A DNA stretch of 64,000 nt from an uncultured Spirochaetota bacterium (lineage in GTDB: Bacteria > Spirochaetota > Spirochaetia > SZUA-6 > Fen-1364). The notes under the pieces are model-generated. The model was not told where the DNA came from and made no database searches. It worked only from the letters and a program-made list of their open reading frames with translations. A program made the translations under genes and the position numbers. Location: the NCBI GenBank assembly GCA_963781885.1, contig CAWAHW010000006.1, forward strand, positions 192,001 through 256,000. Direction: 5' to 3'. Below, piece by piece: positions 5,528 to 35,198 of the stretch (positions within the stretch are counted from its first letter, which is position 1; each line of letters begins with the position of its first letter).

Positions 5528-6694
5528 CTATTGAATTCCGTTGGGGCTTCGAAGTGCTTGCCGGTATGTCAAAGCTCTTTGGATCTCCGCCTTTGAGAAC
5601 GATCCATAACGCTGCTCAAACATCCGATTGATCTCGTCCGTCTTTCCCGCATGTTTGAAGTCGTCATATACTCCGCGAAAGTAGTAAAAGAATAGCAAAT
5701 CAAGAAAGGCCGGCGAGTAGTCCGACCGTTCAGTCGACGAATCACGAAGAACGACCAGCGTGGAAGAAGAGTTTCTGATCAGTTCGCCGAACACGCGCAT
5801 GCTTTCGTCGATTTTTCCAAGCTTCAATAGGGACGCTACGAGCATTTCGTCACGATCGTCGTACGACGGATGACGATAGGAATACCACTGCACGAACTCA
5901 TCATAGTGGCCGGAGAAATATAGTACTGGGCAAATTCGCACGCTGTCTATCGTTTGTTTCGGATCAAACAGTCTTCTGTGAGAATCAAAAACAGCATATG
6001 CTTCCGCAAAGCGTAGCTGAAATTTCAGTGTCAAGAAGAGATCTTCTACCGCATTCTTCTTGACCAAGTTTTTTTGAAATCTTCTCACGGCTTCAACTGC
6101 AGGAATCTCTCGCTTCGTCAACCCGTCGATGAAAGCGCTGAGCGTATCATACGCCTTCCAATTCGACGGGACACTCTGCTCTACATGGTTTCTCTCAAAT
6201 ACCAAGGTGTCGAACCGGGTAAGTCTTGGGTCAAACTCGGCCAATTCGTAAGGAGTGAAAGTGCTCGCTCGAGCGATCAAGTCGTCATAGTACTTCATGC
6301 CGTCCATGAATTCTGAATCCGGAGAATCCACCAAATATCCGTGACTTGCGTATAGAAAAATTCTGGTATCGTCGCCCGTAGCATCGAAATATGTCTTGAA
6401 CCCTTTGAATATTTTCAGCAAGTCGCCGTCTCTCCAGCAAAGCAGCGCCCGATCGAAGAGCGCCGACTTCGTGCCCCGTGCAACAAGAGCATCAATTTGT
6501 TTATTGAGTCCCTCTGTCTCTTCGGGAGTGTACGAACTCTTCAGAAGACCTATCCGCTTTCGCACCGCATTCTGGGCGGGGCTGAAAACCTGCGCCCTCT
6601 GTTGCTGCCCACTACTGCACTCCGTGAACAGAAGCAGTTGGCTGAGAAAGGTGAGGACCAGAATTGCTATTTTCCGAAAGTCTTTTGAATCCAT
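5528..6694 (-). CDS. Hypothetical helical lipoprotein; candidate immunity protein
   Basis: 388 aa. Basic N-terminus and hydrophobic core ending LFTE-C (lipobox-like). Start overlaps the giant gene's end by 28 nt. Visibly AT-richer than flanking genes. Confidence 0.7.
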   Translation of the reverse strand: MDSKDFRKIAILVLTFLSQLLLFTECSSGQQQRAQVFSPAQNAVRKRIGLLKSSYTPEETEGLNKQIDALVARGTKSALFDRALLCWRDGDLLKIFKGFKTYFDATGDDTRIFLYASHGYLVDSPDSEFMDGMKYYDDLIARASTFTPYELAEFDPRLTRFDTLVFERNHVEQSVPSNWKAYDTLSAFIDGLTKREIPAVEAVRRFQKNLVKKNAVEDLFLTLKFQLRFAEAYAVFDSHRRLFDPKQTIDSVRICPVLYFSGHYDEFVQWYSYRHPSYDDRDEMLVASLLKLGKIDESMRVFGELIRNSSSTLVVLRDSSTERSDYSPAFLDLLFFYYFRGVYDDFKHAGKTDEINRMFEQRYGSFSKAEIQRALTYRQALRSPNGIQ

Positions 6695-9600
6695 GCGTTG
6701 TAGCTTGCGCTTTCGTTGTTGAGGTAATTACGCCAGTATTCATACTGACCCGGTTTCCGATTCCAGTAGTCGTTGGCATTAATAACTTTCGACAAGTAGT
6801 CTGAACTATAAGACAGACTTTTCTGTGCGGATATGTCATAAGCGTTCTCAAGATTGACCTTTCTCAGCAATTCCTTGTCAAATGCATCTCCTGCAGTGAA
6901 TTCAGGTGGCAGATCCCAGAATCTCTTTCTTTGCGCATCGAACATCCCAGGGTCTTCTTGTACAAACTGCATGACCTTCGCTCCGGGAGACCCATCGATG
7001 CCCTGGCCAACGACCAATTCTTTCGACTGGATGCCACCAAAGAAGTACTGCTTTACCAAATCATCCGGGGTCCCCATCTTTATGAACTCCGCCATTACAA
7101 CGTACCGCTCCTTGGCCGCGTCTTGAATTTGTCCGATGGTCTCAGGGTCATACGCAATATTCTGGGTATTCAATGGAACTCCCAAGGCATCCGCTTTGCT
7201 GAATACTGCTTTGTCCATGTTCTCCATGCCTTTAATGCCCTTCATCATCTCGGGCAAATTCGCCTCCAAACTGTCGTACAAGTCTCTCCCACTGGCGACA
7301 AAGTCCTCCGCAGCCAATCCCGTGAGCATCGCAGCTCCGAACGAGCTCTTTTCCCACAAGTTCTCTTTCATAACCGACGCAGGGTTCACCATGTCGAGAA
7401 GGACTTCCGCCCCGCTCACGCCAGCTTTGATACCCTGAGACAGCGCACTCCCCATAAGGATCATGCTAATCAGACCTTGCGCGGGGTTGTAGTCACGCTC
7501 GTCAAAGATGTCCTTCCCCGTCCGATTAGCATACCACCATTCTGACAACTGCCCACCGCTAATAGTATCCGCAGCATCAGCAAAACCGCCAGTTGAAAGC
7601 TTCAGGGCTGGCCCTAAAAGTCCCTTCCACGCCGAGTCCCAAAGGTTATCTGGCACTATGCCAACCGGGTCGTTGCTTCCTTCATTTCCACTGAATTTAG
7701 CATGCTCTTCGCCCCCGGCACCGATCTCCCAGTTGCCAGCAACCATTGCTTGTCTGGCGATGCTATTGCTAAAAGCCGAATCACTTACACCCCATGCCTT
7801 GCTAATTGTGTACATCGCGTCCATTTGCATGATGTATGCAATGCCCTCAACACGATTGCCAGAAGCATGTGTTCCCTCATGACTAAGGACCGAAGCCATC
7901 TCGGCAGCGCCCAGTGCTCCCTTTGCGTTCAACATGTCGGCATTAAGGGTGATGGTATTCGGCGATTCGGTAGAATACGATCCCCACTCGTTCTGCGCCA
8001 TCTGACTACTGAATTGCACGGCCAGGTCCCGAGAGAATATCCTCTGGGCAACATTCCAGTTTTGCTCGCTGTCGGTGTATCCAAGCCCGTTGACGGCGTT
8101 CAGCACCGCCCTGTCATCCGAACTCCCGTATTTCCACTTCGATATCGCGGCGCTTTCAGAAACTCCTTGTATCGCGCTTGCGATGTTTCCCAAGCTGAAG
8201 TCAGCCCCGCCGGTTCCCAAATTCATGCTGAATCCATTTGAGCCTCCCAGATGCATTTCCAAAAGCCCGTTTTGCACGATCTCCCCATCAGCGCCTTTGA
8301 TCCCAAGCATGCTGAAGTTTGCGACGTTTAGAGTTGCCTCTCCTGTCATTCCGTATTGGATCCCGGCCGAGACCGCACTTCCCATTAGTCCATTGAAGCT
8401 CTGAATGCTCTGCGTATCGAATACATGTCCGTTGAGTGTGATTCCGTTGCCGTCTTTGAGGTTCCACTGCCCGAGACTACTACTTGTTGCTGTGCTAGCC
8501 ATCCCTCCCAGATATCCCGCCAGCGCTTGCTGGCCTACCACTGATTGCGCAAACGCCTGGCCGTCGAATCCAAATCCTTTATTGCTGGAGTAGGTTATGT
8601 TATTGATCAGCCCCTGGCCCATGTTTGTCGTAAAGCCTTGAGCGCCGCTCCATATGGTCTTGCCGATTATCCCGCTCAGCCCACCCACGGCGTCCAGGCC
8701 CTTCGTGACCGTGTCCCCCAATCCCCCCATGGCCATGCTGAATGCCGTGCTGAGTATGTCCTTGCCAAGGCTCACCAGACCTTCGCCCAACGACATCTGC
8801 CTGTTGGCCAGATCGGCCACGGTGAAGAGACCTTTCTCCACCAGCCCTGCGATCGCAGCTCCCGCCGGCCCGGCGATCACCGTCCCCACCACCGAGACGC
8901 CGATATCTGCCACGCTGCGCAGGGTCGGCGCCTTTACCCAGGAGTTGCGGTCATCCCAGAGCTTCTGATCGTAAGCGGGGCGGGCCGCCATCGCCCAGCC
9001 CATGCCTGCCTTCATCTGGCTCCACATGAAGGGGGTCAGCACTCTGCCGAGCTCGCCGCTGCCCGTGGCGCTCAGGTATTTGCTGTATTCAGTCTCTTCG
9101 GCAGTGGCGTCGAGGTTCTCCGATTCCATTTTGGGGGCGATCCCAACGTAGAGCCCGAACTTGCCGGCCCCAATGCTTGCGGCGGTACTTGACGCGTCGC
9201 GCCTGGTTGACTCCCTGACGGTCGTCACCTGCGACGTGTGGCGGTTTCCCTCTGAATCTACTGTCGAAACGGTGTCAGTCACCTCAGTATGAACCGTGAC
9301 ATTTTTCCAGGAGGTGATTTCCGTCGTCCCTGTGTCACCTTGTTTGCCGAAGATTCCTTCCAGCTGACCCCGCATGTCCTTGATCGCCAGCTCCACCTGC
9401 GCCTGGATTCCGGCGGCGGAGAGCTGCAACAAGGTTGCGTCACTGAGATCGACTTTCGAGGCAATTTCCGCATCAGGCACAAAAGGCCTGTATGCCGGCA
9501 CGACGTGCGTTTCCGTCAGCGGACCGTTTATCGTCGAATCAACGACGGTCTGGCGTTGGAAATCACCACCGCTCCTGACGAATCCCGCCTCAAGCAAGCT

Positions 9601-11595
9601 TCTCTCCAAACCATCGGCAACGCTCTGATTGGCGTCGTCGATTTGTCGGTTCATCTCCACCGCGGCATCGGCGACCGCCTTGCGTGCTTCGGCAGCCGTG
9701 ATCATCAGGACGTGCTTGTCGATCTCTTCCATGCTCAGGCCGTTCATTTCTCTGATGAGGCTGAGGACGTGCGAGCTGTCAAAGACGTCAGGTCCGAGCT
9801 GGGCGAAGACCACGGAGCCTGCGCTGCTGATCCCCCGGTTGAGCAGCTTCCCGCTTGCCAGCAGGCTCGCAAAATCCTTGCCCTCAAGAATTCCCGCCAC
9901 CGCCGCGCGGGCGTCCGGCGCGGAAATCCCCAGATCGCTCACCACAATGCTTCTTGCATCCCTGATCGCGCCTTCGGCACTCTGGCCGAGCTGGCCAAGA
10001 ACGGCTTCGGAGCCGATTGAAGCCGCCTTCGTTGCCGCGTCCTGAACCCACCCGGCCTTGCCGGTCTCGAGCTTGGCATACGAGGCATCCCAGGCCGCCG
10101 CGCGATCCTGATAAGCCGTGGCGAAAGCGCTCTGCCAGTTTGTATGCTGCGTCTCAAGGGCGTCAAATGCCGTCTCCCATTGGGTCTCGGCTCGTTTCAG
10201 GATGGTCTCCATTGAAGCCTGCCACTGGCTCTGTTGGGTTTGCAGGTCCTCCTGCATCAACGCCCAGCGCTGCTCCTGGACCGCCATGTAGCTTTTCATC
10301 CGGTCCTGCCATAGCGCGGCAAGCGCCTGACCTTGAGAGCTCAGAAGATCCTGCTGGGCCCGATCAAGCTCAGGGTGTTTGCGCGGGTCTACTTCAGCCT
10401 GAAGCGACTGCTCAAGACCCAAGAGTCGATTCACATGATCGGAGGTTCGATATGCGGGATTGAGGTAGGCGCGCCGTGCGGCCTCCTGGAGCGCCGTCTC
10501 TGCGGCACGATAGGCATCCGATGGATGCTCGGGATCTGCCAAAGGGACTTGGCGGAGATCGTTGAGCGCTTTCTGATACGCCTGCTCGTTCGCAAGCTGC
10601 GTTGCCGCCAAGGCGCCGGCGCCTTGTTCGAGATCGGCGCTCGCGGCTTCACGTCTGGTCTGCGCGTCATAGAGCATGTCATTGAGGGCCGTCGCGGCGT
10701 CAGTTGCCGGGTGCGCCGCACTCGTCGCGGAACCGAGGTAGCGATCGATGAGCCCGGGAAGGTCCAACCTCTGCGACGGATCGGCTATTCCGGTATTCGC
10801 AAGGGCGAGAATATCCGCCAGGTCCTGCTTGCTCACTGCCGCGAGTATCGCGCTCGTGATTGCTGTGGTCGTTACCGCCGCTCCAGAGGTGCGACCAAGC
10901 ATGGCATCAAGAGTAGCTATCTCATTGTCCAGATTCGCCCGCAATCTCGAATACCCGCCGCTTCCCACGGTTGCATCTGAAAGAGCCTGGGCAGCCGTGG
11001 TCACGAGTCCGCTGGTGCCGAATGCATTCGTAATCTGGGTATTCAGATTTGTCTGGTAGTCATTATCAACCGTGGCCATGTGTCTTTGGTTGCCCGACTC
11101 GATTCCCAAACCTATCGCCAAAGCGTCAAGCATCGCGGCCGCAGCCCAACCACCAGGAATTGCCCAGAAGAAGAGGGAAGACAAGTAATACCCTGTGGCA
11201 ACTGATGCAGCAGTTTGTGCCGCGGCCTTGTGCGTTTGCTCTTGCTTCTCAAGCAGGTCCACCAGATACTGCTTCGCGTCGGCGACGTAGCTGCTCTTGA
11301 GCATGTCGGAATTGGCGTGGGATTGGTTGCTCGTCATACCCAGGATATTCATTGCGATGAAGAACTCGTAGAGATTCTTCTGCTGCGCGTCACTCATAAT
11401 ATTGTTGTACGCGTCCAGTCCTCGGGTCCTGAACTCCTGCGTATCATAGTCGACGCCATCTGGGACGCTGTTCTGTAATGACCTGGCCCTCATTGACTTG
11501 ATATGTTGCGAACAGTTTCTTGATGTCCTTGTCTCCTGACCCGGAAGGATTGATGACCGAAATCTGGTATTGAAACGCGAGGCCCCAGTTTTCAA
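6667..11595 (-). CDS. C-terminal part of giant exported protein (candidate polymorphic toxin): Trp-ladder helix, Gly-rich hydrophobic helices, HExxH motif, variable C-terminal tip
   Basis: 1642-codon ORF overlapping the upstream ORF in the +1 frame. It has no signal peptide of its own. HEGTH at 7867-7881. Probably one gene with 11444..18487. Confidence 0.8.
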   Translation of the reverse strand: MKTGASRFNTRFRSSILPGQETRTSRNCSQHIKSMRARSLQNSVPDGVDYDTQEFRTRGLDAYNNIMSDAQQKNLYEFFIAMNILGMTSNQSHANSDMLKSSYVADAKQYLVDLLEKQEQTHKAAAQTAASVATGYYLSSLFFWAIPGGWAAAAMLDALAIGLGIESGNQRHMATVDNDYQTNLNTQITNAFGTSGLVTTAAQALSDATVGSGGYSRLRANLDNEIATLDAMLGRTSGAAVTTTAITSAILAAVSKQDLADILALANTGIADPSQRLDLPGLIDRYLGSATSAAHPATDAATALNDMLYDAQTRREAASADLEQGAGALAATQLANEQAYQKALNDLRQVPLADPEHPSDAYRAAETALQEAARRAYLNPAYRTSDHVNRLLGLEQSLQAEVDPRKHPELDRAQQDLLSSQGQALAALWQDRMKSYMAVQEQRWALMQEDLQTQQSQWQASMETILKRAETQWETAFDALETQHTNWQSAFATAYQDRAAAWDASYAKLETGKAGWVQDAATKAASIGSEAVLGQLGQSAEGAIRDARSIVVSDLGISAPDARAAVAGILEGKDFASLLASGKLLNRGISSAGSVVFAQLGPDVFDSSHVLSLIREMNGLSMEEIDKHVLMITAAEARKAVADAAVEMNRQIDDANQSVADGLERSLLEAGFVRSGGDFQRQTVVDSTINGPLTETHVVPAYRPFVPDAEIASKVDLSDATLLQLSAAGIQAQVELAIKDMRGQLEGIFGKQGDTGTTEITSWKNVTVHTEVTDTVSTVDSEGNRHTSQVTTVRESTRRDASSTAASIGAGKFGLYVGIAPKMESENLDATAEETEYSKYLSATGSGELGRVLTPFMWSQMKAGMGWAMAARPAYDQKLWDDRNSWVKAPTLRSVADIGVSVVGTVIAGPAGAAIAGLVEKGLFTVADLANRQMSLGEGLVSLGKDILSTAFSMAMGGLGDTVTKGLDAVGGLSGIIGKTIWSGAQGFTTNMGQGLINNITYSSNKGFGFDGQAFAQSVVGQQALAGYLGGMASTATSSSLGQWNLKDGNGITLNGHVFDTQSIQSFNGLMGSAVSAGIQYGMTGEATLNVANFSMLGIKGADGEIVQNGLLEMHLGGSNGFSMNLGTGGADFSLGNIASAIQGVSESAAISKWKYGSSDDRAVLNAVNGLGYTDSEQNWNVAQRIFSRDLAVQFSSQMAQNEWGSYSTESPNTITLNADMLNAKGALGAAEMASVLSHEGTHASGNRVEGIAYIMQMDAMYTISKAWGVSDSAFSNSIARQAMVAGNWEIGAGGEEHAKFSGNEGSNDPVGIVPDNLWDSAWKGLLGPALKLSTGGFADAADTISGGQLSEWWYANRTGKDIFDERDYNPAQGLISMILMGSALSQGIKAGVSGAEVLLDMVNPASVMKENLWEKSSFGAAMLTGLAAEDFVASGRDLYDSLEANLPEMMKGIKGMENMDKAVFSKADALGVPLNTQNIAYDPETIGQIQDAAKERYVVMAEFIKMGTPDDLVKQYFFGGIQSKELVVGQGIDGSPGAKVMQFVQEDPGMFDAQRKRFWDLPPEFTAGDAFDKELLRKVNLENAYDISAQKSLSYSSDYLSKVINANDYWNRKPGQYEYWRNYLNNESASYNAWIQKTFGK

Positions 11596-18487: not shown

Positions 18488-18803
18488 TTTCAATCCTCTG
18501 AACGTTTTCATTTGCTCTTTCGCCAAAGCACAAACGAAGGAGCTTGTAGAAATTCGTATCACAGGTATCTGCAACCGTCAAGGATTCCAACGGGCTATCC
18601 TTGAAGAAGGAGGATTGAATATCAGCAGTTCGACTCGCAGGGGAGGAATAGATATGGAATCACCTTCGGTTCACATTTCCTCTGCGACCATGGCGTATTG
18701 GATTACGGGTGGCGTAAGAAGGGTTTGGTCCGAAGATTGTGGAAAAGACCACCAAGAATCCGGCCTTGAGCTTCTGCTGGTCTTCTTTCATTTCGCTTCT
18801 AGC

Positions 18804-19160
18804 CTACTGAGACGCTTCTTGGAGTATCTGATAAGCGTCACTTCCTTTCAGAAAGGCATTGTATTGTGCGTAGTCAAAAGCAGTCCTTCCCCAATTGTCT
18901 TTCGCTCTGCCATCTGCGCCAGCCTCCAGAAGCATCATGACGACAACAGGGTCCAAATTACTTTCGGCGGCGGCCATCAGCGGTGTCATGCCATCCAGGT
19001 CTCGAGCATTTACATCGGCTCCATGCTCTATTGCAGCCTGTATTTTCTGTGGCGTTTGGCATTTTACCAGTTCAAAAAAAACCACCGACTGCGCGTATGT
19101 CGATCCCACAGTAATCAAGAATAGAATCGTGACAAATAGCCGTTTCGAATGGGCAGACAT
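18804..19160 (-). CDS. Small secreted ankyrin-repeat protein
   Basis: Signal peptide ending TYA-Q. Ankyrin motifs GADVNARDLDGMTPLMAAA and LLEAGADGRAKDNWGRTAFDYA. AAGGAG RBS. Confidence 0.85.
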   Translation of the reverse strand: MSAHSKRLFVTILFLITVGSTYAQSVVFFELVKCQTPQKIQAAIEHGADVNARDLDGMTPLMAAAESNLDPVVVMMLLEAGADGRAKDNWGRTAFDYAQYNAFLKGSDAYQILQEASQ

Positions 19161-19175
19161 CGCCTCACACTCCTT

Positions 19176-26744: not shown

Positions 26745-26745
26745 G

Positions 26746-29700
26746 ATGAAAGCGAGCGCGAACGGCACGGCCTTGCTGGAGACGTGGTTCCGACGGAAGG
26801 CGACGATTGTCTCCGTCCTGCTTATCCTCCTCGTCCTCCTGGTTGCCGCGTTGCGCTCGCTCCAGTTTGGTCCCTCCTGCGCCGTCGGACCGGCTGTTTT
26901 CTCCGTGTCGATGGAATACTTCGGTGTCGATGCGGAGGAGATGGAGCGCCTGGTCACCGTGCCACTGGAAGATGCGATTGCCGCCCTTTCCGGAATGCAG
27001 CGCCTGCGTTCCACCTCGGAATACGGCAAAAGCGTCGTGGAGGTGACCCTTTCTCCGACAACGGCTCCTGACCGTTTCTACCTTGCATTGCGCGACGCGG
27101 TGAACGGCCTCTCGGCCACGCTGCCGAAGGCGGTACAACGGCCGGAAATCCAGAGCGCCGCCAACGACCAGCGGCCTTTTTTCATCGCAACGGTTCTCGC
27201 TCCGGGGGCTACCCTCGATGAAACCCGCGACCTCGTCGAGTTGACGGTGAAGCCTGCCCTCAAGCGGATCGACGGGGTGGGGGAGCTGGAGGTCGGCGGG
27301 GGAAGCCAGCTCGAGGTCCACCTCGTCGTCGACCAGAAAAAGGCGGTCGCCGCCGGCCTTTCCTTCGACGCGATCGCGTCGGCGCTCCAGGCCGCCTATG
27401 TCTCTCGACCCATCGGTCGGCTGCGCGCGGCCGGGTTCGACACGCCCATCATCCTCGATGGCCGCTTCGACTCGCTTTGCGCGCTCGCCGATCTCTGCCT
27501 CAGTCTTGGAGACGACAGATTCGTCCGCCTGGGGGATATTGCCGACGTCACGTACGGCGGCCGCGAGCAGGACACCATCAGCCGCATCGACCAGGAGCAG
27601 AGGGTGACGCTTTTCATCAAGAGCGCCGGGACCGCCAACGTCGTCGCGGTGAGCAAAGCTCTCAGACGCAGGATCGCGGAACTGTCCTCTCGCCATCTGT
27701 CCTTTGACATCATCTACGATCTCGGTGCGGATCTCTCGGCGTCCATCGACGATGTGCTCTGGTCGCTTGCGGTCGCGATGGGGATCGTCGCGTTTTTTGT
27801 CGGTGTCGCTTTACGCCCCTTGCGGAATGCATGTCTCCTCACGGCATTCCTGCCGGTCGTTGTCCTGGCAGCTGCCGCCATCCTCTCATCGCTTGGCATC
27901 AGTGTGGACCACAACATTCTCGCCGGCATCGGCGTCGGGATCGGGATGATCGTGGATCCCGGCATCATCGTGCTGTCTTCGCTCGTGGCTGCGGGGCGAC
28001 CCGACGGCTCGCCCGCACGGGTCGTCAAGGAGCTGTTTTCCCCGCTTGTCGCCTCCACGGCCACAATGCTGATCGTCCTCATTCCCCTTCTCACCATGGG
28101 GCGCTCCATCAGCGGGCTGTCAGAAGTGTCGTACGCGCTTGCCCTCATGCTGGTCATTTCACTTTCACTCGCGGTTTTCTTCCTGCCGGCTTTTGCGAAA
28201 CGACGCGTCGTGACCGAGGGTGCGTGGTTTTCGACGGGCGGGCGGATCCCGTTCCTCGACCCTGAAAAGCTCCGACATCTGTCGCGTCGCGCGCGTCACA
28301 GCCTGGACGCGGTGGTTCTCTGGGCGGGCCTGCATTGCGGTGCCGTCCTGGCGGCAACGGCGCTCGTCTGCGGATTGGGGGTATTCGCCGCGTTCCGGAT
28401 GGACCTCGTCCTCACGCCGACCCCGGACGCGCATTCGATATTCGCGCACATTGAGTTCAAGAGCGGCACGAGCATCGACACGATTGACGAGCGCACGACC
28501 GCTTTGGCGCGCGTCATCGGCGCGATGCCGGGGGTGCGGCACGTGGAGTCAATTGCGCGCCGGGAAAGCAGCCAATTGACGATCACAACGACAGGCAGTC
28601 CGTCTGAGAATGCCGCCGTGCGTGCCGGCCTGACCCGGGCCGGCCTCCAGATGACCGACGCGTTCGTCTATCTGCCGGAAGGCATGGGTGACACCGACCA
28701 GGCGCTCGAGGTGAGCATCACGGGCGCGGACAACAACATGCTCCGGGAATGCGCGCGAAAAGTTGCGGAAATCCTCCGAGGCGCCTCCTGGGTGAGCCAG
28801 GTCGTCTTGAACTTCAAGGAGGGACCTCCGGCCTACGTCCTTTCCGTCGACCAGGAAGAGGTCTCTACCTATGGCCTCAGCACCGCCGACATCGCCGGCA
28901 CTTTGCGATGGAGCATGTATGGACCGGTGGCGTTGAAGTGGCTGGAACGCGATTCCCGCGAGATCGACCTGCGCATCCGAAGCCGCGCCGACGAACACGG
29001 AGATCTTGCCGCGATTCAACGAACGTCGATACTCGGCGCAGGGGGCCGGGCGGTCTCCGTGGCGAGACTCGGCACATTCGTGGCGGAACAGCCGCCGTCG
29101 CGGATTTTCCGTGCCGACCGACAGCGCGCCGTCTCGCTCACCGTCCACAGCGGGCTGCGCGACACAGGCCTCGTCCTGCGCAGTCTGGAATCGGCCCTCG
29201 CCGCCTTTCCCTTGCCTGCCGGGTATGCATTCCGCGTGGACAGGCTCATCTACGAACGACTCCGCCAGTTCCAGACCCTCGCAATGTTGCTGCTTGGCGC
29301 TTTGATGCTGGTCTTCATCACCCTCGCCACGCAAATGGAGTCCCTTTCGTCGCCGGTCCTCGTCATGTCGATCGTCCCGGTCTCGTTGTCCGTCCCCGTC
29401 GCATTCCTCTGGCTGATCCACGTCGGGATCGGCGTGTCGGTCATCGTCTCACTCATCATCATGACGGGCATCATCGTCAACAATGCCATCCTCATCCTGG
29501 ACCGGACACTCCGCCGCTGCGCCGCCCTGGAGAGCTTCAGCGCGGGGGAGGTGCGCCGGTCGCTGCGCTTCGCGGTGCGGCATCGCACCCGAGCGCTCCT
29601 CCTGACTTCGGCGGCCACAATTCTCGGCGTCACGCCATTTCTTTTCGGCGCCGTCGTCGGATCCGAGCTTTTCCGTCCCTTGGCTATCGTCGTTTTCTGG

Positions 29701-29799
29701 GGGACGATCGCGTCCCTCTGCGCAACATTTCTGGTGCTTCCGGCTGTCGCATCGGCCGTTCCCGTCTTTGCCCGCCGCTTTCCCGAGGTGAGGAGATGA
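26746..29799 (+). CDS. RND permease (AcrB/AcrD/AcrF family), degenerate proton-relay site
   Basis: 1017 aa. GVDAEEMERLVTVPLEDAI. TM4 is GIGMIVDPGIIV, TM10 is GIIVNNAILILD and TM11 is RTRALLLTS. Confidence 0.9.
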   Translation: MKASANGTALLETWFRRKATIVSVLLILLVLLVAALRSLQFGPSCAVGPAVFSVSMEYFGVDAEEMERLVTVPLEDAIAALSGMQRLRSTSEYGKSVVEVTLSPTTAPDRFYLALRDAVNGLSATLPKAVQRPEIQSAANDQRPFFIATVLAPGATLDETRDLVELTVKPALKRIDGVGELEVGGGSQLEVHLVVDQKKAVAAGLSFDAIASALQAAYVSRPIGRLRAAGFDTPIILDGRFDSLCALADLCLSLGDDRFVRLGDIADVTYGGREQDTISRIDQEQRVTLFIKSAGTANVVAVSKALRRRIAELSSRHLSFDIIYDLGADLSASIDDVLWSLAVAMGIVAFFVGVALRPLRNACLLTAFLPVVVLAAAAILSSLGISVDHNILAGIGVGIGMIVDPGIIVLSSLVAAGRPDGSPARVVKELFSPLVASTATMLIVLIPLLTMGRSISGLSEVSYALALMLVISLSLAVFFLPAFAKRRVVTEGAWFSTGGRIPFLDPEKLRHLSRRARHSLDAVVLWAGLHCGAVLAATALVCGLGVFAAFRMDLVLTPTPDAHSIFAHIEFKSGTSIDTIDERTTALARVIGAMPGVRHVESIARRESSQLTITTTGSPSENAAVRAGLTRAGLQMTDAFVYLPEGMGDTDQALEVSITGADNNMLRECARKVAEILRGASWVSQVVLNFKEGPPAYVLSVDQEEVSTYGLSTADIAGTLRWSMYGPVALKWLERDSREIDLRIRSRADEHGDLAAIQRTSILGAGGRAVSVARLGTFVAEQPPSRIFRADRQRAVSLTVHSGLRDTGLVLRSLESALAAFPLPAGYAFRVDRLIYERLRQFQTLAMLLLGALMLVFITLATQMESLSSPVLVMSIVPVSLSVPVAFLWLIHVGIGVSVIVSLIIMTGIIVNNAILILDRTLRRCAALESFSAGEVRRSLRFAVRHRTRALLLTSAATILGVTPFLFGAVVGSELFRPLAIVVFWGTIASLCATFLVLPAVASAVPVFARRFPEVRR

Positions 29800-30653
29800 C
29801 GAAGCTGCGCGGCTTTGCATGCCTTGTACTCGTTCCATCCCTCCTGGTCACGCTTGCCTCTTGTGCGGCCCGACAAGATTCGGTCGCCCTTGTCCTTTCC
29901 CTTGCCCCCGGCATGGAGAGGACGATGCAATTCACGACGGAGCAGCATTTCACGAGCTCACGCTTCGACGGCGCAGCGGACCCCTCGTCGACGCTCTCCC
30001 TCACGTACCGGTTCCGCGTCGAATCGGTGAGCGCAGCGGGAGTGGCAAAGGTCGAATCGTTGGTGCTCGACATCACGACGGCGAAAGGCGTTCCGGGAAT
30101 TGGTGCCCTTGCCGACAAGCTCCGTCGCCGGACGTACGTGGCGACAGTCGATGCATCAGGCCGTGTTCTCGATCTGCAGGCGGACAAGCCCGACGCGCTT
30201 GCTTTGCCGGGGGTGCCGCTTGCTCCCGCGGGCGGCACGGAGGGCGTTCCGTCAGGGGGTGATCTGGGGGTCCTTTTCGTTGGGCTGAATGGAGAGAAGG
30301 TATCCGTGGGCCAGACCTGGACGACAGCGCTGCCGCATCAGGGCTCGGGGCTCCGCGGGACTCTTCGCTGGACGCTCGCCTCGGTCGGCAGGTCCACGAC
30401 GCGCCTCGACTACACCGGCGTGCTGGAGAAACAGCGGGTGCCCATTTCCAACCTGCCCGCCGGCGCCGAGGCTATCCTGGCCGGCGATTGTTCCGGTTTT
30501 GTCGAGCTTGAAAGGGATACCGGCTGGCCGCGACGCGGCGCCATGGTGATCCGCGCGGACGTCTCCCTTGGCGCGTCAGAGACGGAGGCAGGCCCCGGCG
30601 CGGCATTCGTTTCGATGCGAATCGTCACTCGATTCGACGCGGTGCGCCGATGA
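29796..30653 (+). CDS. Beta-rich lipoprotein (DUF6263-like)
   Basis: AGGAG RBS with ATGA overlap on the RND stop. Lipobox LAS-C, plus VSVGQTWT and LERDTGWP motifs. The upstream part of ORF 28749..30653 is shadow. Confidence 0.65.
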   Translation: MTKLRGFACLVLVPSLLVTLASCAARQDSVALVLSLAPGMERTMQFTTEQHFTSSRFDGAADPSSTLSLTYRFRVESVSAAGVAKVESLVLDITTAKGVPGIGALADKLRRRTYVATVDASGRVLDLQADKPDALALPGVPLAPAGGTEGVPSGGDLGVLFVGLNGEKVSVGQTWTTALPHQGSGLRGTLRWTLASVGRSTTRLDYTGVLEKQRVPISNLPAGAEAILAGDCSGFVELERDTGWPRRGAMVIRADVSLGASETEAGPGAAFVSMRIVTRFDAVRR

Positions 30654-30679
30654 TGCACGCTGTTGAGCCCGACGAAAGA

Positions 30680-32080
30680 CTACAGAAGCTGCGACAGGCG
30701 CTCCTTGAGCGGCCCGCTTGCTTTCTTCGACTGGTCAGCGAGGTAGGCGGCAACCGTGGGCGTCTTGAGGGCGGACTTCAGCATGAGCACGCCATCCGAT
30801 GTGTAGACATTTTCATGGCTGATCGACAGCAGGCCAAGCACCGGCGGAAGCACTGTCTGCGGATCGCCTCCGGCCAGAAGCCGTGCAAGAATGACGTCGA
30901 GCTCCGGCCGCAGCAGGATGAAGCGGGCCTCGGCCGCTGCAATGTCGTTGAGCCTGCCGAGCTCGATGCGTGTCTCCCGCGCTGCGTCGGATGCGGGTGC
31001 GAGCAGGATCGTCTTTTCAAGCACGCTTCGCACATTCGCCAAGGTGTAGGCGCCGGGTCCCCTCTTCATCGCGCGCCAGAGGTGGTAGTAGAAGGCGGGA
31101 TAGCTGCGATAGCGCCCCTCCAGGGATGTGTAGTCGGTCAACAGACTGACGGTGACATTCTGCTTCTCCAGCGAGCAGGACAGAAGCAGAAATCGTGCAA
31201 ATGGATCGTCGACTCCCTGCAGCGCTCCGGTCAGGGCACCGAGCGCGTCCGACCAACGGGCATGCAGGTACGCCGAAAGCCCGCGCAGCAAGGCTTGCGC
31301 ATTCATGCTTCCCAAGCCTGCCACGTCGGTGCGGCGGGAAAGGGCGTCGAGATTCAGATCCAATTGCTCGATCGTGATCGCCCCCTGGGATTGCTGATAC
31401 AGCGTTTCCTTGAATGCTGCCAGCACACTGGTGACGGTCTGGCCCGTCTTCTCCCGCAACGCCGATTCAAGGAGCCCGGTGCCCGGCTGGTAGCCGAGGC
31501 TTTCTTCGCAGTCCTCGAGCACTTTCAAAGCATCGGCATCACGCGCCGCGGCGCCCAGCGCCTGCGCGTACACCGCATAGTCCACGGCGGACTTCTGGAC
31601 ATTTTTCTTTTCCCAGGCGGCCTGGAAATCCGCGATCGCTGCAGCGGCGTTTCCCGCCTGCGCAAACGCCCTTGCACGAACGATGAGCGCGGCAGGATCC
31701 CCCGCCCGGGCCGCGGGTGTGACCACGGGAAGAGCGTCTGCGGGCTTGCCCTGCAGGAGGAGCGTTCGCGCGTATTCGAGACGGGCCGCCTGCGCCGCGT
31801 CCGGGGAAACGCCCGGCCTTTCGTTCAGGCTTTGCGCGCTGTGAAGATACACGGCAGCGACGTCGAGCTGTCCCAAGGCGAGATAAAGCTCGCCCAGGCG
31901 GTATTTGACCCCAAAAGAATCGGGATTCTCCTGATCCAGCTCAATAAGGGCGGCGAGCCGCTCGGAGGGAATCGTCATGGCGTCGATGCGGGTCAATCGA
32001 TCCTGCACGATTGCATTTTCCCCCTCACAGGCAGCGAGCAACGATACCGCGATCGCGCAGAACAGCATCAGTCGCCTCAT
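30680..32080 (-). CDS. TPR-repeat lipoprotein
   Basis: GGAGG RBS and lipobox LLAA-C. TPR helices KYRLGELYLALGQLDVAAVYL and ALIVRARAFAQAGNAAAAIADF. Confidence 0.8.
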   Translation of the reverse strand: MRRLMLFCAIAVSLLAACEGENAIVQDRLTRIDAMTIPSERLAALIELDQENPDSFGVKYRLGELYLALGQLDVAAVYLHSAQSLNERPGVSPDAAQAARLEYARTLLLQGKPADALPVVTPAARAGDPAALIVRARAFAQAGNAAAAIADFQAAWEKKNVQKSAVDYAVYAQALGAAARDADALKVLEDCEESLGYQPGTGLLESALREKTGQTVTSVLAAFKETLYQQSQGAITIEQLDLNLDALSRRTDVAGLGSMNAQALLRGLSAYLHARWSDALGALTGALQGVDDPFARFLLLSCSLEKQNVTVSLLTDYTSLEGRYRSYPAFYYHLWRAMKRGPGAYTLANVRSVLEKTILLAPASDAARETRIELGRLNDIAAAEARFILLRPELDVILARLLAGGDPQTVLPPVLGLLSISHENVYTSDGVLMLKSALKTPTVAAYLADQSKKASGPLKERLSQLL

Positions 32081-32168: not shown

Positions 32169-35100
32169 GTGCCTTACCGCCTTGCCGTGCGACGACCCGT
32201 CGGAACCCTGATGCTGTACGTGGGCCTCCTGTTTTTCGGTCTCTTTGCCTCGGCGAATCTGCCGTTGGATTTCCTGCCGGCCATTTCGATGCCGACCCTC
32301 GTCGTTTCGGCCTCCTATCCCGGCGCCTCCGCAGAGGAGGTCCGTCAACTCATCACGATCCCGCTCGAAGATGCCTTTGCTTCGATAAAGGGAGTCTACG
32401 CGATGCGCTCGATCTCGCGCCGAGGCGTCGCGACGCTCACGCTGGACTTCCAATGGGGGGCGAACATGACCGTCGCCGGCGTTGAGACGCGCGAAGTCAT
32501 CGACACGACCTTTCCGCTTCTTCCTCAGGAAGCGGAAAGGCCGCAGGTGTTGCCCGTCGATCCCAACGCCCAACCGGTCCTGATCATCGGGGTCCGGTCG
32601 AAGGACGGCAGCTTGGGAACGGCGCGCAGGCTTGCCGATCGAGAGATCAAGACGGCGCTCCAGCAGGTCGACGGCGTCGGCTCCGTGACGCTCGTGGGAG
32701 GAAGCGAAGACGAAGTGCAGGTGCAGGTCGATCAATCCCGTCTGCAGGCAGCAGGCCTCACCATCGATGATGTCGCATCATTTTTGGCCGGCGCAAATGT
32801 CGATCTCCCCGCAGGGGCCTTTATCGAAGCCAACAGCGAGTTCCTTGTCCGGACAAAGGGACGAGTCACCACACCGGAGGATCTGGCCGATCTTCGCATT
32901 CCCCTGCAGAGCGGCGGGGGGATCCGTATCCGCGATCTGGCGGACGTCGCCTGGCATCCGAAAGAGCAGATCTCGCTCTTTACAGCCAACGCACTGGAGT
33001 ACGTCGGTCTCGAAGTCCGTGCCCGCAATGGCGAGAGTCCCGTCCGGCTTTCCCAGCGTCTGCGCACGGAGGTGGACCGTCTCTCACACGCGTACGGCAG
33101 CAGCCTCGAGGTCGAGGTGATGGAAGACAGCGCGACCACCATCGTGCAGTCTATTGGCGGACTGGTCTTGGCAGGCGGCGTCGGAGGAGCGGCCGCTTTC
33201 CTCATCATGTTTCTCTTCTTGCGCCGCCTGCGTCCTTCCGCGATCCTCATCAGCGCGGTACCCTGCTCCGTGCTCTTCTGCTTGCTCCTTCTATGGATCG
33301 CAGGCCGCACGATCAACGTGATGTCGCTGGGCGGAATCGCGCTTTCCATCGGCATGCTGGTGGATGACGGCGTGGTGGTCCTCGAGAACCTCCAGAGACG
33401 CATCGGCGGCGCCGCGGAGGGAAGGCTGCGGGAGATGGTCGTGCGCGCGTGCGCCGAAGTGGCGGGATCCATCCTGGGGTCCACCCTCACCACGATCGTC
33501 GTCTTCGTGCCCGTGATCTTCCTCCCCGGGCTGATCGGCGCGCTCTATGCCGATCTTGCACTCGCCGTCATTTTCTCCCTCTTCGCCTCACTCATCGTCT
33601 CCATGACGCTCATTCCCGTCCTGTTCCTCCTCACCTATCCCCGCCGGCCCGATTGGACGGGAGAGCATGCGTTGCGCGCGGGCCCGCTGGAGCGGGGATA
33701 TCGCAAGATGCTCGCCGCGGCGCTCCGGCGCCCGCTTGTCGTCGGGCTCGGGCTGCTGGGCATCGTGGCCCTCACCGTGCCCCTGGTGCCGGCGACGCGC
33801 ATGGAGCTTGTCGCGCCGTATGACGGAGGGACGATCGCGGTGCGGATCGTCGCCGCGCCGTCGACGAGCATGGAGCAGCTGAAGCGGATTGCGTTTTCCG
33901 CCTCTGCGCGCGTCCTGTCCGTGCCCGGCGTTGCCTCGGTGTGGAGCCGGGCCGGCGGGGAAAGCGAAGATACCTTCTATCTTGCCGACCCCGACACGAG
34001 CAGGGAAACCATCACCCTGTCGGTCCACACCCGCTACGGCCGGCGCCCCGCATCCCTTCCCATTGTCGCCGAGCTGCGCAAGGCGCTGACCGTGGAGGGC
34101 GCCGACGTCTCGGTGTCGCTTCCCCGCTCGAGTCTCGCGCAGCTTCTCGGTCTGCGGGGCGCCGGCTACGAGCTTTCCAGCCTGGGGCAGGCGCCGCAGG
34201 ACGCGCGCGCCCGAGCCGACCAGGTCGTGGACGAGCTTCGGGCGGCGGACCCCGCGGCGGCGGTCCACGTGGCCGAGGCCGCGCGCGTGCAGGAGCTGCA
34301 CTACACGCCCAACCGGGAGTCCCTTGCCCGCAGCGGGGCGAGCGTTGCGACGGTGGCGCAGACGACCTGGGAGGGCCTGGAGGGCGCCGTCTCCACGAGG
34401 CTCAGCTCTGGCGGGCGCGACTACGACGTGCGGATCATCCTTTCGCAAGCCGACCGGTCCGACCGCAAATCCCTTTCCGCCCTGCGCGTGCGCACGCCCG
34501 CAGGAAGCCTCGTGGAGACGGGTGAGGTCGTCCAGATCGATGAGGGAAGCTCGCCGTCCGCGCTCGTGCGCGAAAACCGCCAGGACGTTTCCCGCGTGGT
34601 TGTCGAGCAGGGGGCGATGTCATCCCGCCTGCGCACGGCAATCGCGCATGCGGCGGCGTCACCCGACGTCCGGGATGCCGCCCAGAGCATCTTCTCCCAG
34701 CACGCGGGGGAGATCGCGCTGATCCTCGTCATCGCGCTTGTCCTCCTCTACCTGCTCCTGGGCGCGCAATTCGAGTCTTTCATCCAGCCGCTCATCATCC
34801 TCGTCGCCGTTCCCCTGGCGACGACGGGAGTCCTTGCCGCGCTTCTCCTTGCCGGACAATCGCTGAATCTCAGCTCGGGGCTGGGGGTGCTGGTGCTCTT
34901 TGGGACCGTGGTGAAGACCTCCATCATCCTTTTTGCGAACTACCGCCGGCGCATCGATGCGGGCTCCCATTCGTCATTCGCCGTCTACACGGGAACGTCG
35001 GAGCGCCTGAGGCCAATCCTCATCAGCACCGTTGCGACGATTGCCGGGCTTCTGCCCATCGCCGTGAACCTCAACGGGCTTTCCACGGAGGACGGGATTG

Positions 35101-35198
35101 CCATCGCAATCATCGGCGGGCTTGTCGTCTCGACCGTGCTCACGCTTTTTGTCGTGCCGCTCATCACGTGGCGGTACTACAGGGCAAGGGGAAGGTAG
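32169..35198 (+). CDS. RND permease (AcrB/AcrD/AcrF family), canonical proton-relay site
   Basis: AAGGAG RBS, AVRRPV and YPGASAEEV. TM4 is IGMLVDDGVVVLEN, TM10 is GTVVKTSI and TM11 is RLRPILIST. Confidence 0.92.
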   Translation: MPYRLAVRRPVGTLMLYVGLLFFGLFASANLPLDFLPAISMPTLVVSASYPGASAEEVRQLITIPLEDAFASIKGVYAMRSISRRGVATLTLDFQWGANMTVAGVETREVIDTTFPLLPQEAERPQVLPVDPNAQPVLIIGVRSKDGSLGTARRLADREIKTALQQVDGVGSVTLVGGSEDEVQVQVDQSRLQAAGLTIDDVASFLAGANVDLPAGAFIEANSEFLVRTKGRVTTPEDLADLRIPLQSGGGIRIRDLADVAWHPKEQISLFTANALEYVGLEVRARNGESPVRLSQRLRTEVDRLSHAYGSSLEVEVMEDSATTIVQSIGGLVLAGGVGGAAAFLIMFLFLRRLRPSAILISAVPCSVLFCLLLLWIAGRTINVMSLGGIALSIGMLVDDGVVVLENLQRRIGGAAEGRLREMVVRACAEVAGSILGSTLTTIVVFVPVIFLPGLIGALYADLALAVIFSLFASLIVSMTLIPVLFLLTYPRRPDWTGEHALRAGPLERGYRKMLAAALRRPLVVGLGLLGIVALTVPLVPATRMELVAPYDGGTIAVRIVAAPSTSMEQLKRIAFSASARVLSVPGVASVWSRAGGESEDTFYLADPDTSRETITLSVHTRYGRRPASLPIVAELRKALTVEGADVSVSLPRSSLAQLLGLRGAGYELSSLGQAPQDARARADQVVDELRAADPAAAVHVAEAARVQELHYTPNRESLARSGASVATVAQTTWEGLEGAVSTRLSSGGRDYDVRIILSQADRSDRKSLSALRVRTPAGSLVETGEVVQIDEGSSPSALVRENRQDVSRVVVEQGAMSSRLRTAIAHAAASPDVRDAAQSIFSQHAGEIALILVIALVLLYLLLGAQFESFIQPLIILVAVPLATTGVLAALLLAGQSLNLSSGLGVLVLFGTVVKTSIILFANYRRRIDAGSHSSFAVYTGTSERLRPILISTVATIAGLLPIAVNLNGLSTEDGIAIAIIGGLVVSTVLTLFVVPLITWRYYRARGR

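Follow-up and report, generated by a model that had tools for sequence, protein, structure and literature searches.

Giant, probably polymorphic-toxin proteins of Spirochaetota and a co-occurring RND/TolC/Big_5 lipoprotein gene cluster

AcrAB-TolC and MdtABC/MuxABC are RND tripartite efflux pumps, the MdtABC/MuxABC type being characterized by hetero-oligomers of paired permeases. In type 1 secretion of the LapA/RTX type, giant adhesins and toxins leave through TolC-like channels. To our knowledge, RND pumps move small molecules, not polypeptides. For polymorphic toxins, Zhang, de Souza, Anantharaman, Iyer & Aravind (2012, PMC3482391) describe a trafficking region conserved at the N-terminus, an extended body, a C-terminal toxin domain that varies, and an immunity gene immediately downstream, along with signs of cassette replacement; some members also have a domain for pretoxin processing. 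TANFOR-domain toxins of Bacteroidetes (PMC7073777) are large, mostly carry a signal peptide, and combine a lineage-specific N-domain with swappable tips; the T9SS, a two-step outer-membrane system, was put forward as their export route on the strength of gene neighbourhood and co-occurrence.

Here, we studied a 64,000-nt window (the whole stretch of DNA analysed; contig CAWAHW010000006.1, positions 192,001-256,000) from an uncultured Spirochaetota bacterium (GCA_963781885.1). The locus at 5528-35198 of the window consists of a giant signal-peptide gene on the minus strand and, facing it head-to-head, a pump-type gene set in the order TPR lipoprotein, small lipoprotein, TolC, MFP, two Big_5 proteins, RND, lipoprotein, TPR lipoprotein (minus strand), and RND (Table 1). 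The giant gene and its relatives have all of the polymorphic-toxin traits listed above, the processing domain being PT-HINT in two homologues. They differ from the toxins described by Zhang et al. (2012, PMC3482391; RND and TolC absent from the 300,000 characters of text searched) in having an N-domain that belongs to no Pfam or NCBIfam family, no RHS, haemagglutinin, LXG, PAAR, or TPS modules, an RND/MFP/TolC set as associated machinery and, in the window, an unclassified tip. Size, a signal peptide, a lineage-specific N-domain, swappable tips, and the grounds on which an export route is proposed are shared with TANFOR toxins, whereas the N-domain and the phylum are different, the proposed machine is an RND tripartite set rather than T9SS, and the machine genes directly adjoin the toxin gene or share an operon with it.

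The cluster, for its part, resembles RND tripartite pumps in its outer-membrane factor, lipoprotein adaptor, and 12-helix RND proteins of ~1,010 aa, and resembles MdtBC in having two different RND genes together. It departs from them in that the window's RND proteins score far under every NCBIfam subfamily cut-off (RND 1, 344 bits; RND 2, 551 bits; NF033617 cut-off, 1250 bits), in that two Big_5 proteins and one or two TPR lipoproteins are always present, and in being co-inherited with a giant secreted protein. Type 1 secretion likewise has very large substrates, a channel of the TolC family, and a membrane-fusion protein, but here neither an ABC transporter nor RTX repeats nor a secretion signal at the C-terminus turned up. 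Since the substrate carries a Sec signal at its N-terminus, export, if it occurs, would take two steps and be driven by the RNDs.

Table 1. Features of the locus, with positions in the 64,000-nt window
Feature	Position	Strand	Description
388-aa signal-peptide protein	5528..6694	-	helical repeats; candidate immunity protein; overlaps end of giant gene by 28 nt
Low-GC patch	5600..8400	.	candidate swapped-in cassette; GC 0.47-0.56 vs ~0.62
Variable C-terminal tip part, ~350 aa	6667..7725	-	no known family; low-confidence model
Zincin-like metallopeptidase domain	7726..8160	-	invariant HExxH...E; HEGTH at 7881..7867; adjoins variable end
Giant ORF B, C-terminal frame, 1,642 aa	11595..6667	-	helical body through tip
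Frame-change zone of giant gene	~11412-11491	-	three-frame translation and collinearity with P0002
Giant ORF A, N-terminal frame, 2,347 aa	18487..11444	-	signal peptide, Trp-rich helical N-domain, helical body
Conserved Trp-rich helical N-domain of ORF A	~18409-17138	-	
Signal-peptide-like N-terminus of ORF A	~18487-18410	-	
Divergent intergenic region, 1.1 kb	18575..19677	.	GC ~0.50
TPR lipoprotein 1	19678..20373	+	Pfam TPR_16 E 4.5e-21
184-aa lipoprotein	20377..20931	+	no family
TolC-like outer-membrane factor	20942..22330	+	OEP PF02321 E 1e-28; under TIGR01844 cut-off
Membrane-fusion (periplasmic adaptor) lipoprotein	22327..23706	+	HlyD_D23 E 1e-25
Big_5 Ig-like lipoprotein a	23740..25224	+	PF13205 E 2e-25, 3 stretches
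Big_5 Ig-like lipoprotein b (Big_5b)	25221..26744	+	PF13205 E 5e-34; cluster marker
RND permease 1	26746..29799	+	ACR_tran PF00873 E 1e-125; the more divergent one
285-aa lipoprotein	29796..30653	+	weakly DUF6263-like; PF19777 24.5 bits, under 26.7 cut-off
TPR lipoprotein 2	30680..32080	-	weak TPR matches
RND permease 2	32169..35198	+	ACR_tran PF00873 E 8e-196

All of the genes named in a preliminary description of this DNA were found in place, with two corrections. The coupled run of pump-type genes is present but is not entirely co-directional, since the second TPR lipoprotein gene lies on the minus strand. The giant gene had been read as a single gene of ~3,940 codons (18487-6667); its signal peptide and extent were borne out but its single open frame was not. 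We place a frame change in the zone given in Table 1 because ORFs A and B are collinear with one intact homologue, the 3,940-aa P0002 (ORF A 1-2332 with P0002 1-2335; ORF B 62-1145 with 2369-3439). The frameshift rests on this assembly, as public contigs over its surroundings cover 11552-11965 only, and the giant gene may thus be inactive here or the frameshift may be an assembly error; split giant genes also occur in the loci of four of nine relatives. On visual inspection, seven cluster proteins have lipobox-like Cys motifs, and the MFP exceeds the TIGR01730 cut-off (195 vs 94.9 bits). Neither giant ORF, nor the 184-aa or the 388-aa protein, has a Pfam or NCBIfam family. In line with the first description, no canonical toxin export route was detected among the window proteins scanned: families of ABC exporters, POTRA/TpsB, RHS, haemagglutinin repeats, and T6SS/T7SS were all missing from them, and those outside the locus have housekeeping or unrelated domains. 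In the divergent intergenic region, a promoter scan scored no better than shuffled sequence, and no Rfam family was found. Membership of the giant gene in TIGR04388, suggested earlier, is not supported by profile matches: the model finds nothing in the genome of the window, and among Leptospira-like genomes it picks genes other than the giant one.

The N-domain, in which W72, E73, W168, W314, W343, and W357 are invariant in the alignment, was detected in 77 of 401 Spirochaetota genomes searched. Family members have this helical domain and a helical body in common, and their tips vary. The alignment of ORFs A and B with close homologues (3,940 and 4,008 aa) is collinear up to ORF B residues 1145-1173, beyond which the sequences diverge; over the last 700 aa of 29 complete homologues, homology mostly gives out 250-350 aa short of the end. 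The C-terminus is not invariant among homologues. Tips comprise M23 peptidases, PT-HINT plus Ntox8 followed by DUF2750/Imm16, and ends with no recognised domain (Pfam on 20 tips: M23 in two, PT-HINT plus Ntox8 in one, PT-HINT alone in one, none in 16); P0003 also carries PF01551. Leptospira-like homologues (~4,100-4,500 aa) are hydrophobic in an N-terminal segment and carry PT-HINT close to their end. By description, not by sequence, they can be likened to a large L. interrogans protein (LA_3725 / LIC10502) to which PMC4751964 assigns an N-terminal TM segment and PT-HINT; no pump is mentioned there (RND and efflux, 0 occurrences).

In the window, ORF B runs from the helical body through two hydrophobic stretches and a Gly-rich region to a zincin-like HExxH domain and a rare C-terminus. 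The zincin domain (model pLDDT ~90; invariant H94, E95, H98, and E105 in alignment A3) has as best fold matches the M35 aspzincins 2x3a (Z 7.7), 1g12 (Z 7.5), and 1eb6 (Z 7.4), and nearly all of its 101 representatives at E<=1e-3 align to the zincin part alone. The variable part beyond it is common only to P0012, P0013, P0029, and P0036 among 1.84 billion representatives; the model is mostly below pLDDT 50 from tip residue 174 on, except for ~64-74 at tip residues 310-370, and no recognised toxin family was found in the window's own tip. Homology to all homologues stops at ~nt 8160 (ORF B 1145-1173), matching a low-GC patch (profile computed in 400-nt windows) that spans the tip together with the gene for the 388-aa protein.

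The 388-aa protein is a candidate for the cognate immunity protein of the giant tip. It had been called an overlapping lipoprotein gene; the overlap holds and a signal peptide is present, but the lipobox ('FTEC') that follows is atypical, so its lipoprotein status is uncertain. It has only two homologues in 5.8 billion proteins, was found in none of 40 relatives' genomes searched, matches no PHROG family, and gives a weak PPR-like repeat signal against PDB sequences. In the window and the four homologues examined, the downstream gene differs together with the tip: the Ntox8 tip is followed by DUF2750 (E 3e-22), which is Imm16, the partner of Ntox8 in Zhang et al. (2012, PMC3482391), the M23 tip by a 257-aa LRR lipoprotein gene, and two others by 143- and 155-aa lipoproteins. 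The downstream product is an exported (lipo)protein in the window and in three of the four homologues, which points to tips that act in the periplasm, for example, as M23 peptidoglycan peptidases. On this layout, we consider it highly probable that the giant family consists of polymorphic toxins.

The polymorphic-toxin reading, and a functional coupling of the family to the pump cluster, which we regard with equal confidence, are well supported because the family has this layout and the pump set tracks the giant gene. A Big_5b match, our marker for the cluster, occurred at E<=1e-8 in 74 of the 77 giant-positive genomes. At E<=1e-18, the 401 genomes, which are related and not independent samples, divided into 63 with both, 14 with the giant gene only, 17 with Big_5 only, and 307 with neither; the two are not widely found apart. 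The E-value threshold that makes a match 'cluster-type' was set after inspection of the data. A profile search recovered the N-domain in four of the 17 Big_5-only genomes and not in the other 13, in two of which (G164 and G373) no giant ORF was found beside the cluster. Within one genus (g8), marker and giant gene are in the same 8 of 24 genomes. Among 41 close relatives, nine have both, two the giant gene only, and two Big_5 only, all four single-marker genomes being 60%-87% complete.

Gene neighbourhoods agree with these distributions. TolC, MFP, and both Big_5 genes lie within 20 kb of the 5' side of the giant gene in 23 of 40 cases, with an RND gene in 22; for 16 of the other 17, the marker is elsewhere in the genome. 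TPR lipoprotein 1 is kept at the cluster head in 19 of the 40 flanks and TPR lipoprotein 2 has homologues in 10, while the 184-aa lipoprotein had no tblastn match in any. Adjacency is kept across Spirochaetota classes at 20%-30% protein identity, and the Big_5, TPR, and twin RND genes move as one set. In three genus-mates (G402, G408, and G415), the last RND gene is followed on the same strand, at a distance of ~0.1 kb, by the start of the giant gene. For G419, the closest homologue (53% identity), the 20 kb upstream of the giant gene are free of cluster genes, and the cluster is on a different contig; in family f55, giant gene and cluster are as a rule not linked. Our searches of the literature yielded no account of an association between a giant toxin and such a pump cluster.

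Whether the locus is a spirochaete-specific polymorphic toxin system with a dedicated envelope machine we judge to be evenly balanced, and that the cluster is the export or display route of the giant protein has, in our estimate, an even chance at best. In this model, the signal peptide would take the giant protein into the periplasm via Sec, where the Trp-rich N-domain may serve as a trafficking domain that engages the two TPR and two Big_5 accessory lipoproteins. A proton-gradient-driven assembly of the TolC-like channel, the lipoprotein adaptor, and the two divergent RNDs, probably a hetero-oligomer, would then move or thread the helical body across the outer membrane, leaving the C-terminus exposed or released. 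Judging from its position, the zincin-like domain, or PT-HINT in relatives, probably processes or releases the variable toxic end, and the overlapping downstream gene would encode the matching protector.

It is also conceivable, if unlikely, that the cluster is coupled to the toxin without exporting it, the giant protein leaving by lysis, vesicles, or an unlinked system. The cluster may then protect or service the producer's envelope, for instance by clearing pieces of toxin or damaged envelope material from the periplasm, or may carry a small-molecule partner. This would suit the established RND substrates, which are small molecules and lipids, the full-length alignment of both RNDs to multidrug and metal RND models (below cut-offs), the 13 genomes with a cluster and no detectable giant gene, and the lineages in which the two are unlinked. 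However, a protective function should change from tip to tip in the manner of the downstream genes, whereas the cluster is constant over M23, Ntox8, and unclassified tips. What is conserved along with it is the N-domain, on which the trafficking route of a polymorphic toxin usually depends, and the operon-like spacing in the three genus-mates puts the giant gene last in a pump operon.

We think it rather improbable that the giant protein is mainly a structural or adhesive part of the envelope, for example, a long helical periplasmic or surface tether with end domains that reshape the wall of the cell itself; in that case, the cluster would be an envelope-biogenesis machine with Big_5 and TPR lipoproteins as scaffolds, and toxin-like tips would be secondary. 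In favour of this, the N-domain model consists of long helices throughout (pLDDT 78.7), the helices of N-domain and body have generic spectrin-like fold matches only, and the cluster is rich in lipoproteins. M23 and zincin domains are known from housekeeping wall enzymes as well, but a tip with PT-HINT and Ntox8 and a DUF2750/Imm16 gene behind it bears the signature of toxin and immunity, and close relatives swap tips and downstream genes with a compositional break. The patchy distribution within genera (4 of 20 genomes in g1, 8 of 24 in g8) is also more in keeping with an accessory weapon than with a core part of the envelope. It is very improbable that an ordinary efflux pump stands in odd company through historical accident or shared regulation, with no physical or functional link: gene order and orientation do vary (divergent, co-directional, or unlinked) and many Leptospira-like genomes have weaker Big_5 matches and no giant gene (64 'Big_5 only' at E<=1e-8), but within genera the same genomes have or lack both, adjacency is conserved, and the set moves jointly. 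The coupling of a probable polymorphic toxin family to this pump-type cluster hints that giant toxins may be exported or displayed in a manner not described before.

The architecture of the locus, the variation of its tips and immunity-type genes, and the co-inheritance of its giant gene and pump cluster can be observed directly; we read it as a polymorphic toxin system in which a twin-RND/adaptor/TolC set, with Big_5 and TPR lipoproteins, would serve as the trafficking machine, all steps of transport being inferred. The genes named in the preliminary description are all present, with two corrections: the giant gene occupies two frames here, and the second TPR lipoprotein gene lies on the minus strand.

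Genes of the giant-toxin locus and the pump cluster, in window coordinates
Feature	Position	Strand	Remarks
Giant gene, both frames	18487-6667	minus	two reading frames in this assembly
ORF A (N-terminal frame)	18487..11444	minus	2,347 aa; Sec-type signal peptide at start
ORF B (C-terminal frame)	11595..6667	minus	1,642 aa
388-codon gene	6694..5528	minus	overlaps giant gene end by 28 nt; signal peptide, then Cys in atypical lipobox
TPR lipoprotein	19678-20373	plus	Pfam; across 1.1-kb gap from giant gene
184-aa lipoprotein	20377-20931	plus	no family
TolC-like factor	20942-22330	plus	PF02321
Lipoprotein membrane-fusion adaptor	22327-23706	plus	HlyD_D23; TIGR01730 above cut-off
Big_5 lipoprotein a	23740-25224	plus	
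Big_5 lipoprotein b	25221-26744	plus	
RND permease 1	26746-29799	plus	PF00873
Lipoprotein	29796-30653	plus	weakly DUF6263-like
Second TPR lipoprotein	32080..30680	minus	
RND permease 2	32169-35198	plus	PF00873

The two frames are collinear with P0002, an intact 3,940-aa homolog from a related MAG (residues 1-2332 of ORF A align to 1-2335 at 53% identity, and residues 62-1145 of ORF B to 2369-3439 at 52% identity), which places the change of frame at about 11412-11491. The frameshift is either a real mutation or an assembly error; public contigs from the sole study holding this DNA (3 DNA runs) span 11552-11965, outside the frame-change zone. Giant genes are split into at least two long frames at 4/9 loci of close relatives (L082 in G408, L083 in G415, L084 in G424, and L088 in G421), for instance as 1,223 + 1,953 aa or 2,188 + 1,746 aa and, in G415, in many pieces, reflecting either frequent gene decay or indel errors in MAG assemblies. 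By eye, the signal peptide of ORF A passes from a basic start through a hydrophobic core to AIA/QN. Two hydrophobic, Gly/Ala-rich stretches of ORF B, also found by eye (residues ∼130-165 and ∼880-910; window 11100-11200 and 8870-8960), are kept in P0002 and are candidate membrane-inserting segments within an otherwise soluble helical protein. The giant protein at another locus, L102, carries about ten S-x-x-x-G-[FY]-G repeats ahead of a PT-HINT domain, and in the window protein the matching position is taken by a shorter Gly-rich stretch (ORF B ∼930-1140); this region is possibly a beta-rich module.

Neither ORF A nor ORF B matches a Pfam, NCBIfam, or PHROG family. A phage tape-measure protein was considered and set aside: ORF A, ORF B, and the 388-aa protein matched 0 PHROG families, and the window proteins that were scanned included none of a phage-type family. 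A word-indexed protein search returned just 7 relatives (3,149-4,056 aa). Six-frame genome searches were more productive, and the first 430-570 residues of the giant protein match in 77 of 401 Spirochaetota genomes, in open frames mostly 3,000-4,500 aa long. Such N-terminal matches occur in 11/41 close relatives, among them 4/20 genus-mates, and a single-protein scan for loci with this N-terminal domain gave two named loci, from the MAGs Spirochaetia bacterium and Treponema sp. Six residues (W72, E73, W168, W314, W343, and W357) are invariant in an alignment of 18 N-domains. The domain is modeled as long helices (pLDDT 78.7), for which a Foldseek search of the PDB returned generic long-helix proteins alone, none at E ≤ 1e-3, and the ESM Atlas gave no usable match. 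The family libraries searched hold no counterpart of the N-domain, which is new to them. A complex prediction pairing it (residues 27-450, alignment A1) with TPR lipoprotein 1 (residues 36-231, A2) scored 0.00, which counts neither way.

Membership of TIGR04388, the Leptospira proteins whose layout was earlier called similar, had to be abandoned, as NCBIfam gives no match for either frame. The TIGR04388 model (Lepto_longest, cut-off 45 bits) likewise finds nothing in two homologs or in the window's own genome (G000). In Leptospira-like genomes it matches other ORFs, of 2,139-2,315 aa, and hhalign of the N-domain profile against two TIGR04388 proteins gave probabilities of 4% and 24%. TIGR04388 ORFs are mostly ∼2,000-2,350 aa in these genomes (some matched frames are shorter), with about nine matches in G114, several of them clustered (sites at G114:C1:1343252-1388847 and 368917-411142, and at G282:C7:64687-67410). 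TIGR04388 is thus a large-protein family of its own, with paralog arrays.

The proposed polymorphic-toxin layout is borne out, both in the giant protein and in the genes downstream, which vary with the tip. For every homolog, P0002 and P0003 among them, homology to the window protein ends at residues 1145-1173 of ORF B. When the last 700 residues of 29 homologs with complete 3′ ends are compared, similarity is mostly lost 250-350 aa before the end, even in proteins that are 77% identical up to the break point. Pfam assigns Peptidase_M23 to two of 20 tips, PT-HINT with Ntox8 to one, PT-HINT alone to one, and no family to 16; P0003 also has M23. Sequence comparison shows a conserved N-terminal region and body joined to a C-terminal domain that differs between close homologs, as in polymorphic toxins.

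The window's own tip has no Pfam match and 0 PDB-sequence matches. Its last 497 residues, searched against 1.84 billion representatives, gave 101 matches at E ≤ 1e-3, nearly all confined to the first 150-170 residues; the remainder is common only to P0012 (46%), P0013, P0029, and P0036, and the 100% match, P0011, is the window's own ORF. Within the shared part, H94, E95, H98, and E105 (HExxH plus Glu) are invariant in 20 sequences, the model reaches a pLDDT of ∼90, and a zincin-like fold is seen for the first 140 residues of the tip. The top structural matches are M35 aspzincins (2x3a, Z 7.7; 1g12, Z 7.5; 1eb6, Z 7.4; 97-110 residues superposed at rmsd 2.5-3.2), and zincins fill most of the top 30 rows. 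Because Z scores below 8 are not decisive alone, the call rests on the invariant motif and the structural matches together, and the domain is read, at the level of fold, as a putative zincin-like metallopeptidase. The domain lies directly before the variable end, and Leptospira-like homologs have PT-HINT near the same end; this position and counterpart suggest a role in processing, although the domain could itself be toxic. In some relatives, by eye in the alignment, it is followed by M23-like motifs. The last ∼350 residues of the window tip are unclassified and poorly modeled.

By position and variation, the gene directly downstream is a candidate immunity gene that changes with the tip. In the Leptospira-like genome G282, a tip with PT-HINT and Ntox8 is followed after 12 nt by a gene for a 128-aa DUF2750 protein (E 3e-22), a family given as Imm16, partner of Ntox8, in the tables of Zhang et al. 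2012 (PMC3482391). The M23 tip of G402 is followed by an overlapping gene for a 257-aa LRR lipoprotein, and the tips of G419 and G323, both without a Pfam family, by genes for unrelated lipoproteins of 143 and 155 aa, respectively. The window's 388-aa protein has 2 homologs in 5.8 billion proteins and occurs in 0/40 relatives' genomes, and metagenome scans with this protein or with alignment A4 found no other locus with the tip and 388-aa pair. Further, GC content falls from ∼0.62 to 0.47-0.56 over 5600-8400, exactly the tip and the 388-aa gene. Together, tip-matched downstream genes, a rare 388-aa protein, and a drop in GC are signs that the cassette of a polymorphic toxin locus has been replaced. 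At the start of the L102 contig, a fragment after the DUF2750 gene (L102:1-193) resembles, by eye, the end of a transposase or integrase, so a mobile element may adjoin the toxin cassette there. Beside the window's cassette, two genes at 2346-5298 converge on the low-GC region, encoding a 734-aa beta-propeller protein with NHL repeats and a protein of the monofunctional transglycosylase type (PF00912); having normal GC, they are probably ordinary flank genes.

Across from the giant gene, the pump cluster encodes an RND permease, an adaptor, and an outer-membrane factor together, the complete set of an RND tripartite machine (PF00873 twice, HlyD_D23 with TIGR01730, and PF02321). RND permeases 1 and 2 fall in no curated subfamily, the best being NF033617 (344/551 bits, respectively, vs. 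a cut-off of 1250), with TIGR00914 and TIGR00915 below cut-off too. Known kinds of export route were looked for without success: for type 1 secretion, no ABC or RTX family turned up when the giant ORFs, the cluster, and 17 flanking proteins of the window were scanned; for two-partner secretion/CDI and Rhs systems, no TPS, hemagglutinin-repeat, TpsB/POTRA, or RHS/YD Pfam family was found in ORF A, ORF B, or their neighbors. Rfam gave 0 families over the whole window, and in the divergent region, scanning for promoters and terminators did no better than on shuffles. The flank genes are unrelated (an NHL-repeat protein, a transglycosylase, an APH-type kinase, tRNA synthetases, and a radical-SAM protein). 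Two downstream genes, also unrelated to the locus, encode a CHASE2-sensor adenylate/guanylate cyclase (41396-42979) and a 1,040-aa B12-binding radical-SAM protein (58627-61749). In G323, the giant gene and a small lipoprotein gene are followed by a 1,010-aa ORF, as long as an RND permease (L089:12103-15135).

The coupling of cluster and giant gene, also foreseen in the preliminary description, holds both in gene content and in position. With Big_5 protein b as the cluster marker, strong matches (E < 1e-40) were found in 11 of the 41 relatives, 9 of which also have the giant gene; two giant-only and two Big_5-only genomes are all 60-87% complete. Among the 401 genomes, 74 of the 77 with a giant gene have the marker at E ≤ 1e-8 (both 74, giant only 3, Big_5 only 64, neither 260), a threshold that also catches generic Big_5 proteins. 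Stricter thresholds, set like the looser one after the data had been seen, gave 63, 14, 17, and 307 genomes, in the same order, at E ≤ 1e-18 and 57, 20, 16, and 308 at E ≤ 1e-22; all of these counts ignore kinship and treat related genomes, which are non-independent samples, as separate. A search with the N-domain profile found the giant gene in 4/17 genomes of the Big_5-only group, directly adjoining the cluster in two, and none in the other 13 cluster-positive genomes. Within genus g8, the same 8/24 genomes carry both features, and likewise in g13 (2/3) and g3 (1/2).

For 40 giant genes, as much as 20 kb of 5′ flank was searched with the window's cluster proteins, and 23 flanks contained TolC, the adaptor, and both Big_5 proteins (22 of these also RND, and most TPR1), at identities of 20-40%. 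Four of the 17 negative flanks are shortened by contig ends, and 16 of the 17 have the marker elsewhere in the genome. The arrangement is divergent in the window, G431, and G129; in G402, G408, and G415, the giant gene is co-directional, ∼0.1 kb after the last RND gene. There are counter-examples: in G419, which holds the closest homolog, the cluster is on another contig and the 20 kb upstream of the giant gene is unrelated; cluster and giant gene lie apart in family f55; and the two cluster-without-giant genomes inspected, G164 and G373, have no giant ORF beside the cluster. G288 has a second Big_5 gene pair on another contig (G288:C26:7501-10241), besides the pair adjoining its giant gene, and may thus carry the cluster twice.

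In the mechanism that we envisage, the giant protein would be exported by Sec to the periplasm, where its conserved N-domain would be recognized and its helical body passed or threaded through the TolC-type channel at the cost of the proton gradient; after processing at the zincin or HINT domain, the tip would act, with the downstream protein giving self-protection. Most often this downstream protein is a lipoprotein that is exported, an indication of periplasmic targets. We tentatively propose that a proton-driven twin-RND/adaptor/TolC machine, aided by Big_5 and TPR lipoproteins, takes giant helical polymorphic toxins (3,000-4,500 aa), once exported by Sec, across the outer membrane, with the N-domain as address label, by a spirochete pathway unrecognized before, a reading that we consider possible but somewhat short of probable. 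The pump may instead protect or service the producer, with the toxin not exported by it. This less likely alternative stands, but the cluster is constant across unlike tips and is co-conserved with the N-terminal domain, which determines how other polymorphic toxins are trafficked. A chiefly structural giant protein is also less likely, in view of the toxin-immunity signatures and the patchy distribution within genera. An accidental link between cluster and giant gene, the least likely of these, is opposed by their co-variation.

RND pumps are regarded as small-molecule exporters, and we know of no polymorphic-toxin trafficking mode that uses an RND/TolC tripartite machine. To our knowledge, protein export across the outer membrane of spirochetes is poorly understood. 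The window locus appears to work in the way of the polymorphic toxin systems described by Zhang et al. 2012 (PMC3482391), but its partner machinery lies outside the described routes, and the text of that paper, as examined, mentions neither RND nor TolC. In logic it is similar to the TANFOR toxins of Bacteroidetes (PMC7073777). Leptospira interrogans LA_3725 is presented as a large protein that has PT-HINT and, near its N terminus, a membrane segment (PMC4751964); it resembles the giant family by description, and the paper makes no mention of a pump. A literature search, which left out supplements and subscription journals, found no description of a pump and giant toxin pairing; no paper on TIGR04388 was found in the literature.

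A phylum-wide, tightly inherited pairing of machine and giant toxin offers a specific candidate, open to testing, for a new route of translocation across the outer membrane. The locus defines two new domains, a Trp-rich helical N-domain proposed to direct trafficking and a pretoxin zincin domain with a probable role in processing, and toxin tips and immunity proteins yet to be classified form a reservoir in the family. A pump that proved protective and not an exporter would still be a new kind of toxin-system accessory. If the export reading is true, the machine would be the first RND-powered protein exporter, and the system would be a weapon common to free-living, Treponema-like, and Leptospira-like lineages.
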